Below, piece by piece: positions 2,999 to 5,019 of a DNA stretch of 27,572 nucleotides. The position numbers and the translations under genes were made by a program. Positions within the stretch are counted from its first letter, which is position 1, and the number at the start of each line of letters is the position of its first letter. The DNA is from a virus, in the UHGV virus genome UHGV-1358942; one strand, given 5' to 3'. Below the pieces are notes generated by a model. It ran no database searches, had not been told where the DNA came from, and was given only the letters and a program-made list of their open reading frames with translations.

Positions 2999-3183
2999 AC
3001 GCCACAATTCAAACGATACCAGAGCTTCTTATCCAGACACGAGGCAATCAGACCGAAGTGGCGAGGATGCTTTCCTGCGCAAGAGGAACAGTGCTCAAGT
3101 ACAACCGAGACAGCAAAGGCGAGCGTCACGTAATAGTTAACGGCGTCCTGATGGTCAAACAGGGCAAGAGGGGAAGACGATGA
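2995..3183 (+). CDS. ninH: NinH-like protein
   Basis: 62 aa (TIPELLIQTRGNQTEVARMLSCARGTVLKY) similar to lambda NinH. Confidence 0.7.
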   Translation: MNATIQTIPELLIQTRGNQTEVARMLSCARGTVLKYNRDSKGERHVIVNGVLMVKQGKRGRR

Positions 3184-3803
3184 GACTCGAAAGCGTAGCT
3201 AAATTTCATTCGCCAAAAAGCCCGATGATGAGCGACTCACCACGGGCCACGGCTTCTGACTCTCTTTCCGGTACTGATGTGATGGCTGCTATGGGGATGG
3301 CGCAATCACAAGCCGGATTCGGAATGGCTGCATTCTGCGGTAAGCATGAACTCAGCCAGAACGACAAACAAAAGGCTATCAACTATCTGATGCAATTTGC
3401 ACACAAGGTATCGGGGAAATACCGTGGTGTGGCAAAGCTTGAAGGAAATACTAAGGCAAAGGTACTGCAAGTGCTCGCAACATTCGCTTATGCGGATTAT
3501 TGCCGTAGTGCCGCGACGCCGGGCGCAAGATGCAGAGATTGTCACGGTACAGGCCGTGCGGTTGATATAGCAAAAACAGAGCAGTGGGGGAGAGTTGTTG
3601 AGAAAGAATGCGGAAGATGCAAAGGTGTCGGCTATTCAAGAATGCCAGCAAGCGCCGCATATCGCGCTGTAACGATGCTAATCCCAAACCTTACCCAACC
3701 CACCTGGTCACGCACTGTTAAGCCGCTGTATGACGCTCTGGTGGTGCAATGCCACAAAGAAGAGTCAATCGCAGACAACATTTTGAACGCGGTCACACGT
3801 TAG
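3180..3803 (+). CDS. Q: Late-gene antiterminator Q (lambda type)
   Basis: 207 aa, essentially identical to lambda Q as recalled, with the zinc-finger CRDCHGTG...CGRCKG. Confidence 0.95.
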   Translation: MRLESVAKFHSPKSPMMSDSPRATASDSLSGTDVMAAMGMAQSQAGFGMAAFCGKHELSQNDKQKAINYLMQFAHKVSGKYRGVAKLEGNTKAKVLQVLATFAYADYCRSAATPGARCRDCHGTGRAVDIAKTEQWGRVVEKECGRCKGVGYSRMPASAAYRAVTMLIPNLTQPTWSRTVKPLYDALVVQCHKEESIADNILNAVTR

Positions 3804-3845
3804 CAGCATGATTGCCACGGATGGCAACATATTAACGGCATAATA

Positions 3846-3874
3846 TTGACTTTTTGAATAAAGTTGGGTAAATT
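3846..3874 (+). promoter_or_regulatory. Late promoter pR'-like with qut region
   Basis: TTGACT (3846-3851), 17 bp spacer, TAAATT (3869-3874). Sequence through about 3895 nearly matches lambda pR'/qut as recalled. Confidence 0.75.
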
Positions 3875-3909
3875 TGACTCAACGATGGATAAATGCACTC
3901 GTTAAATAA

Positions 3910-3942
3910 AGCCCTGAGTTAATAGCTCGGGGCTTTTTGCGT
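3910..3942 (+). terminator. tR'-like intrinsic terminator
   Basis: 9 bp stem (3910-3918 pairs 3926-3934, one G-U) followed by TTTTTGCGTTTT, about 30-60 nt downstream of the predicted pR' start. Confidence 0.65.
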
Positions 3943-4235
3943 TTTAAGCACGGCCTTTCTGAAAGCACATCAAACCAAATACCAGACAGACCAAAATAAT
4001 CACCTTATCCGCTGTGGCTACGGTGCGGTGTGCTTTGCATAAAAGAAAACCAGCTCAATGGCTGGCTTCGTGAAAGCGGGTGGCAGGAGGTTGCGCTAAC
4101 AACCTCATGCCGTTTTGCCCGTGCATATCGGTCACGAACAAATCTGATTACTAAACACAGTAGCCTGGATTTGTTCTATCAGAAATCGACCTTATTCCTA
4201 ATTAAATAGAGCAGATCCCCTTCTGGGGGTAAGAC

Positions 4236-4559
4236 ATGAAGATGCCAGAAAAACATGACCTGTTAGCCGCCATTCTCGCGGCAAAGGAACAAGGCATCGG
4301 GGCAATCCTTGCGTTTGCAATGGCGTACCTTCGCGGCAGATATAATGGCGGTGCGTTTACAAAAACAGTAATCGACGCAACGATGTGCGCCATTATCGCC
4401 TGGTTCATTCGTGACCTTCTCGACTTCGCCGGACTAAGTAGCAATCTCGCTTATATAACGAGCGTGTTTATCGGCTACATCGGTACTGACTCGATTGGTT
4501 CGCTTATCAAACGCTTCGCTGCTAAAAAAGCCGGAGTAGAAGATGGTGGAAATCAATAA
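4236..4559 (+). CDS. S: Holin S (lambda type, with Met1/Met3 dual start)
   Basis: 107 aa starting [22 protein letters not shown], essentially identical to lambda S. Confidence 0.95.
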
Positions 4560-5019
4560 TCAACGTAAGGCGTTCCTCGATATGCTAGCGTGGTCAGAGG
4601 GAACAGATAACGGACGTCAGAAAACCAGAAATCATGGTTATGACGTCATTGTTGGCGGAGAGCTATTCACTGATTACTCAGATCACCCTCGCAAACTTGT
4701 CACGCTAAACCCCAAACTCAAATCAACAGCAGCCGGACGTTACCAGCTTCTTTCCCGTTGGTGGGATGCCTATCGTAAGCAGCTTGTCCTGAAAGACTTC
4801 TCTCCCAAAAGCCAGGACGCTGTGGCACTGCAACAGATTAAAGAGCGTGGCGCTTTACCGATGATTGACCGCGGTGATATTCGTCAGGCAATCGACCGTT
4901 GCAGCAATATCTGGGCTTCACTGCCGGGCGCTGGTTATGGTCAGTTCGAGCATAAGGCTGACAGCCTGATTGCAAAATTCAAAGAAGCAGGCGGAACGGT
5001 CAGAGAGATTGAGGTATGA
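4543..5019 (+). CDS. R: Endolysin R (lambda-type lytic transglycosylase)
   Basis: 158 aa starting [26 protein letters not shown], near-identical to lambda R. Confidence 0.95.

Follow-up and report, generated by a model that had tools for sequence, protein, structure and literature searches.

The late switch of virus genome UHGV-1358942 reads as a P22-type version of the lambda-family late control unit

The role of the -10-like element AACGAT in sigma70-dependent pausing is known from established work on lambda. Among the late antiterminators, lambda Q and P22 gp23 have been described as 'type 1' proteins that are mutually substitutable (PMC8022706), and the Q protein of epsilon34 was reported to be 98% identical to that of lambda and to have the same qut (PMC2629481). 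For the late promoters of P22, 21, 82 and phi80, short RNAs under the control of antitermination are reported in a passage of PMC7547250 that cites Roberts et al. 1976 for P22. A further lambda RNA of ~63 nt, LPR2, was described as new in a 2024 preprint (bioRxiv 10.1101/2024.10.31.621285). The curated P22 record (BK000583) marks the late unit with 'P late or P R'' and 'similar to phage lambda qut', at positions corresponding to those considered here; from +31 to +59 it has the entry 't late or t R'; antiterminated by gene 23 protein action'.

We analysed a window of 27,572 nucleotides, that is, the whole stretch of DNA taken from virus genome UHGV-1358942, and compared its late switch with these systems. 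Judging from its sequence, this switch is very probably (probability about 0.9) a late control unit of the lambda family (type 1 Q) in its P22-type version. The short leader/terminator cassette that it carries is already known, being annotated in P22 and common in HK97-like phages, and the arrangement is ordinary lambdoid mosaicism, in which modules are exchanged by recombination, and not a new event in the window. Taken whole, the window is the late region of a P22-like podovirus, the closest phages being CUS-3, phiv205-1, Sf101 and Kapi1, and the presence of a P22-type late leader in it is therefore unsurprising. The coordinates of the features are collected in Table 1.

Table 1. Features of the late control region in the window, from the Q gene to the holin gene
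Feature	Coordinates	Strand	Basis or remark
Q late antiterminator gene, 207 aa	3180..3803	+	Pfam PF03589 Antiterm, E = 1.3e-57
Late promoter pR': -35 TTGACT 3846-3851, 17-bp spacer, -10 TAAATT 3869-3874	3846..3874	+	promoter scan; hexamers and spacing identical in lambda
Q-binding element of qut (TTTTGAATAAAGTTGGGTAAA)	3852..3872	+	2 substitutions relative to lambda: 3853, 3863
+1 and -10-like pause-inducing element AACGAT (+1 to +6)	3881..3886	+	identical to lambda
Predicted terminated late leader RNA, ~55-62 nt	3881..3942	+	counted from 3881 to a release point within the T-tract or directly behind it
Intrinsic terminator tR', stem 3908-3936, core GCCCTGAG/CTCGGGGC, T-tract TTTTTGCGTTTT	3908..3947	+	fold, P22 annotation
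Spacer, HK97/HK022 type, ~120 bp	3945..4065		alignments; ~50% diverged from that of P22 over 3966-4045
Terminator-like hairpin GAAGCCAGC-CATTGA-GCTGGTTTT, then CTTTTA	4046..4069	-	dG -11.9 kcal/mol, z = -3.7
Lambda-like untranslated region before S (lambda 45015-45185)	4066..4235	+	~97% identity to lambda
Holin S, 107 aa, dual-start MKM	4236..4559	+	Pfam PF05106 (lambda holin family), E = 2.4e-30

Global alignment of lambda NC_001416 (43800-45600) to window 3180-4600 was carried out. A Q of the lambda/P22 family is encoded immediately upstream of the late promoter; 609 of its 624 nucleotides and 206 of its 207 amino acids are identical to lambda Q, the sole protein change being Q instead of L at residue 135. 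The protein is 5 amino acids away from P22 gp23 and identical to the Q of HK544. From the stop codon of Q to +8 there are three substitutions with respect to lambda, at 3842, 3853 and 3863, the latter two inside the Q-binding element. A preliminary description of this DNA had regarded Q and the pR'/qut region as lambda-identical; near identity is what we found, and strict identity does not hold, considering the 15 nucleotides and one amino acid that differ in Q and the three substitutions in the pR'/qut region.

The promoter scan returned pR' as the sole promoter-like site in 3700-4300. It is a sigma70 promoter with the Q-binding element between -35 and -10 and with AACGAT at +1 to +6, and PR' is annotated at the corresponding positions in the records of HK544, P22 and epsilon34. 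The sequence AACGATGG begins at 3881 on the plus strand, and the P22 record places 'similar to phage lambda P late RNA 5' nt' on the A that corresponds to this position. The Q-binding element of the window is identical to that of P22, and the HK544 record carries, at the corresponding coordinates, the remark 'similar to coliphage lambda Qut site with 2bp mismatch'. It was also possible to see that the differences at 3853 and 3863 occupy equivalent positions of two direct repeats (TTTGAATAAA and GTTGGGTAAA).

Downstream of the promoter, collinearity with lambda stops at 3903, CTCGTT (3898-3903) being still common to both sequences. No alignable similarity to lambda was found in 3904-4065, and it returns sharply at 4066 (lambda 45015), from where an identity of ~97% continues into S. 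Because the alignment is lost after 3903 and regained at 4066, 162 bp of the window (3904-4065) stand in place of 405 bp of lambda (44610-45014). The preliminary description had located the departure at roughly 3895 and the return of lambda-like sequence, on into S, around 4065, both within a few bases of the aligned junctions, and had proposed pairwise alignment to lambda as a check. Once this alignment was made the interval proved not to be collinear, which supports the mosaic replacement inside the Q/pR'/tR' unit that the same description had postulated, the allele in the window being that of P22, HK97 and HK022. That there was no replacement at all, the interval being collinear with lambda and the supposed departure from its 6S region an error, is a reading to which we give next to no credence: only short islands such as CTCGTT are common to segments of such different length, and BLAST of 112 related contigs against lambda confirmed the junction at lambda 45015.

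Returning to the replaced segment, the allele-specific differences from lambda start already at +9 (3889), with substitutions at 3889, 3891, 3895 and 3897 (+9, +11, +15 and +17). These are near the lambda +16/+17 pause site, and the position or the lifetime of the pause could differ from those in lambda. On alignment, the segment is composite: a highly conserved cassette from +9 to ~+64 (3889-3944) is followed by a spacer (3945-4065) that varies more. The cassette was taken to begin at +9 because the +9 to +17 substitutions are perfectly linked to the leader type, with no recombinants among the IMG/VR matches listed. In 44 contigs of the window's type the leader and terminator diverged from the window by 0.3-0.45%, against 2.2-4.3% for the spacer and the DNA ahead of S, and the leader was 5-10 times less diverged than the adjoining spacer.

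An intrinsic terminator lies between qut and the late genes on the same strand, with S, R, Rz and the virion genes following tR' on the plus strand. Its stem (3908-3936) is a G+C-rich hairpin of 13 pairs, 6 of them G-C, followed by TTGCGTTTTA. The hairpin taken over 3905-3943 folds with a dG of -19.1 kcal/mol (z = -4.9, 0 of 200 shuffles folding as well), a strength comparable to that of lambda's own tR' (-23.5 kcal/mol). A terminator is annotated at the corresponding place in the records of Emek and ES18. By these criteria of sequence and fold the terminator is real, as had been anticipated earlier for 3910-3942, an interval that is right to a few bases. For the 63-nt leader the predicted fold has a small hairpin at the 5' end (AACGA/UCGUU) and, beyond a linker rich in A/U, the terminator hairpin with the U-tail behind it (dG -23.3 kcal/mol, z = -5.3 for the whole). 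Counting from +1 at 3881, the predicted RNA has a length of ~55-62 nt, in agreement with the leader of about 60 nt, instead of 194 nt, that the first description had expected.

Twenty unique leader variants were compared. The loop of tR' is variable, with four main forms, and the stem is nearly invariant, although several natural variants have single stem mismatches. No compensatory covariation was found in the stem among these variants. Because the stem changes are few and one-sided, the support for tR' comes from conservation, energetics and the P22 annotation and not from covariation.

All the sequence determinants of a type 1 unit are present in the window and are identical to those of P22. 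In the comparison with P22, which covered 75 nt beginning with the -35 hexamer (window 3846-3920), the identity is 100%; it thereby takes in all bases between +1 and the last one of the 5' stem arm (3881-3918), and the stem arms and the T-tract are the same, so that +1, the position of the terminator and the length of the leader coincide. The two differ in the terminator loop, which is TTAATAG in the window and TTTAACCG in P22, and in the spacer, where the identity is ~50% over 3966-4045, the replaced segment as a whole being 76% identical. The lysis genes of the window are nearly identical to those of lambda, whereas the P22 copies are more diverged. In this way the sequence anatomy of the late unit and its identity with the annotated unit of P22 are established, together with the distribution described below. 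As for annotation, the late switch of the window should be labelled as a P22-type PR'-qut-tR' unit with a leader of ~58-60 nt, and beyond this correction the significance is small.

By comparison with lambda, Q (1 amino acid off), the promoter hexamers, the pause element and the region before S from lambda 45015 onward are the same. The logic would also be the same, by analogy: a constitutive promoter, an early sigma-dependent pause, a terminator and read-through with Q. What differs is the leader, which is the 194-nt "6S" RNA in lambda and is predicted to have ~58-60 nt in the window; the terminator hairpins are unrelated, and the 6S body, orf-64 and the LPR2 region are missing from the window. 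The direction of the change is not inferable from these sequences, and lambda could equally be the derived form.

The best match to the replaced segment is HK544, with 100% identity to the window there and 98.8% for the whole of Q through S; for HK97 and HK022 the figure is ~95% over the segment. The records of HK544 and the mEp phages annotate PR' and the similarity of qut to lambda, and in the records of the group as a whole (HK544, HK97, HK022 and mEp, Hendrixvirinae) the terminator is left unannotated. These phages are siphoviruses, whereas the virion genes of the window are those of a P22-like podovirus (CUS-3, Sf101, Kapi1). Over window 1-25000, lambda-like Q, S, R and Rz are joined with P22-like (CUS-3, Sf101, Kapi1) terminase, portal, coat and injection genes, and the maximum coverage of this interval by any phage record is 61%.

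Taking the unit together with what is known of lambda and P22, the following mode of action may be proposed. The constitutive sigma70 promoter pR' (3846-3874) would start transcription at 3881, and sigma70 would bind again to the -10-like AACGAT (+1 to +6), holding RNA polymerase in an early pause. Q would bind between -35 and -10 and load onto the paused polymerase, which would become terminator-resistant. Without Q, the polymerase would stop at 3908-3947 and release an RNA of ~58-60 nt; with Q, it would continue past tR' to S-R-Rz and the P22-like virion genes. In comparison with lambda, the cassette (+9 to ~+64) and a 120-bp spacer stand where lambda has the 6S body, tR' and the LPR2-encoding DNA. 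Pausing, loading of Q, termination and read-through are thus proposed by analogy with the work on lambda and P22.

The distribution of the allele was studied in several collections. Megablast with Q through S recovered 106 phage records with at least 80% query coverage, the best match, HK544, being followed by HK97, HK022, HK106, HK140, HK542, mEp phages, Sf101 and epsilon34. With the replaced segment alone there were 88 phage records at the same coverage (at least 80%), with identities of 100% for HK544, 94-99% for the HK/mEp/Sf101 group and ~76% for P22 and relatives, and the same leader allele was found in HK97, HK022, HK544, epsilon34, Sf101, Emek and mEp phages. Among 5426 complete E. coli genomes, again at 80% query coverage or more, the window's allele is present in 265 and the lambda-specific 405-bp segment in 217; the P22-type allele is at least as common as lambda's own.

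IMG/VR was scanned for the qut core TTGGGTAAATTTGAC(N1-2)CAACGATGG, with which at least 120 contigs were obtained. Among the matches listed, only two leader cassettes follow the qut core, the P22-type one in ~70 and the lambda 6S one in ~50, and directly behind the terminator of each there is a choice of several different downstream sequences. In the case of the short terminator, at least 6 unrelated sequences can follow, the join being at ~3944, a few bases at most from the T-tract. The commonest combination among the matches listed, in ~46 of 112 contigs, is the P22 leader with the HK spacer and lambda 45015 through S. One Q/qut specificity with just two alternative leader/terminator cassettes and many downstream joins, as seen in the IMG/VR matches listed, is of mild general interest. 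We also considered a linkage of the Q-binding-element polymorphisms to the leader type, which was rejected: in the matches listed all four combinations occur, both variants being found with both leader types as common polymorphisms, and the reference lambda form of the element is the minority form.

As a separate observation, five IMG/VR contigs (L021, L111, L119, L055 and L104) carry hybrid alleles, with lambda post-tR' DNA attached to the P22-type leader and terminator. The fusion is located within or just after the T-tract, and the lambda side runs from ~44768-44807 or from 44845 onward. BLAST of the 112 contigs gave recurrent junctions at lambda 44781, 44805, 44845, 44936-44945, 45003, 45015 and 45181.

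Two other readings of the replaced segment were weighed, and both concern what it might encode besides the late switch. One is that it carries a small gene, either a 19-aa hydrophobic peptide (VIILVCLVFGLMCFQKGRA) on the minus strand from 4009 to 3950 or one of the ORFs annotated in GenBank. The peptide ORF is present in the window and in HK97 and is flanked by hairpins, namely the minus-strand one at 4069-4046 and tR', possibly bidirectional, and a 'hypothetical protein' is annotated over the spacer in three GenBank records. Nevertheless, the peptide ORF is frameshifted in HK022, only 11 residues from an unrelated start are left in P22 and epsilon34, and the promoter scan of 3700-4300 found no minus-strand promoter for an antisense unit between the hairpins; the peptide gene was rejected on the frameshift and on its lack of conservation in P22 and epsilon34. 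The three annotated ORFs (epsilon34 gp63, mEp234 054 and Sf101 0056) are on differing strands and frames, are not conserved with one another, and were likewise rejected. No conserved ORF was found in the replaced segment on either strand, the ~120 bp behind the terminator contain no long ORF, and we consider a small gene very improbable. The three conflicting 'hypothetical protein' CDSs (EU570103, JQ182732 and KJ832078) fall over 3944-4210; from their disagreement they are probably over-annotation, and such calls over this interval in related GenBank records are to be treated as doubtful.

The other reading is that the terminated leader is also a trans-acting regulatory sRNA in lysogens, possibly Hfq-dependent, the exchange of cassettes being then an exchange of payload. 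In Stx phages the terminated pR' transcript, StxS, is an sRNA that is bound by Hfq and controls RpoS and stx1; it has the same genomic position and origin as the predicted leader, a short RNA released at tR' without Q (PMC7547250), although its Q type and its sequence are different. In lambda, both 6S and LPR2 are Hfq-associated (bioRxiv 10.1101/2024.10.31.621285), and by our own reading of the sequence against the alignment the LPR2 probe matches lambda ~44815-44850, inside the 405 bp that the window lacks. The leader combines a terminator hairpin and U-tail with a single-stranded stretch rich in A/U, and it is far more conserved than the flanking DNA. By analogy, then, an sRNA role for the ~58-nt leader is possible. 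However, its conservation is already accounted for by the qut and terminator functions, the hairpin, the 5 U and the A/U-rich linker are generic features, and the U-tail has just these 5 U before GCG. Rfam at gathering thresholds over the whole window gave no family in the replaced segment, and when E values up to 10 were admitted for 3750-4300 the matches were all at chance level (best E = 0.5-2, far below gathering scores), with no family match for the leader RNA. A literature search found neither a described function for the P22/HK97-type leader RNA nor target, Hfq-binding or expression data for it. Taking into account both sides, the regulatory role seems unlikely, and the fuller proposal, that the leader is an sRNA constitutively expressed in lysogens and that lambda 6S with LPR2 on one side and the P22-type RNA on the other are exchangeable payloads, somewhat less likely still. 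If it were true, such sRNA 'payloads' would give prophages differing effects on the host. The two cassettes offer a convenient natural comparison for the question of whether a terminated late leader serves some function in itself, because lambda's region encodes two Hfq-associated RNAs that are absent from the P22-type allele.

Apart from the P22-type late switch itself, two hairpins were observed between tR' and S. The minus-strand one (4069-4046) is moderately stable, has its T-run leftward and is located just upstream of the lambda-like S leader, as a putative terminator; it has an extra C-G pair at the base of the stem in P22 and epsilon34 and a stem mismatch in HK97 and HK022. The second, at 4082-4111 (lambda 45031-45060), is common to lambda and has 12 bp followed by GTTTTGCC, with a dG of -26 kcal/mol. 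In the window it contains a G·A mismatch at 4086/4107, a pair that varies from contig to contig (A·C, G-C, T·C, A-T), and P22-type versions show a double change from T-A to C-G at 4091/4102. This hairpin may correspond to one of the tandem late terminators that lambda has downstream, or to a site of RNA processing. Further on, the S protein differs from lambda S in 1 amino acid, and R and Rz are next.

The tR' hairpin was also encountered outside this family. The exact 30-nt hairpin, including the loop (AAGCCCTGAGTTAATAGCTCGGGGCTTTTT), is found in unrelated phages with unrelated flanks, which suggests a terminator that travels as a very small module. In the Hafnia phage Meifeng (L135:1203-1232) it is located ahead of tRNA genes and a holin gene, and in the Pantoea phage AH01 (L136:1202-1231) behind an endolysin gene.
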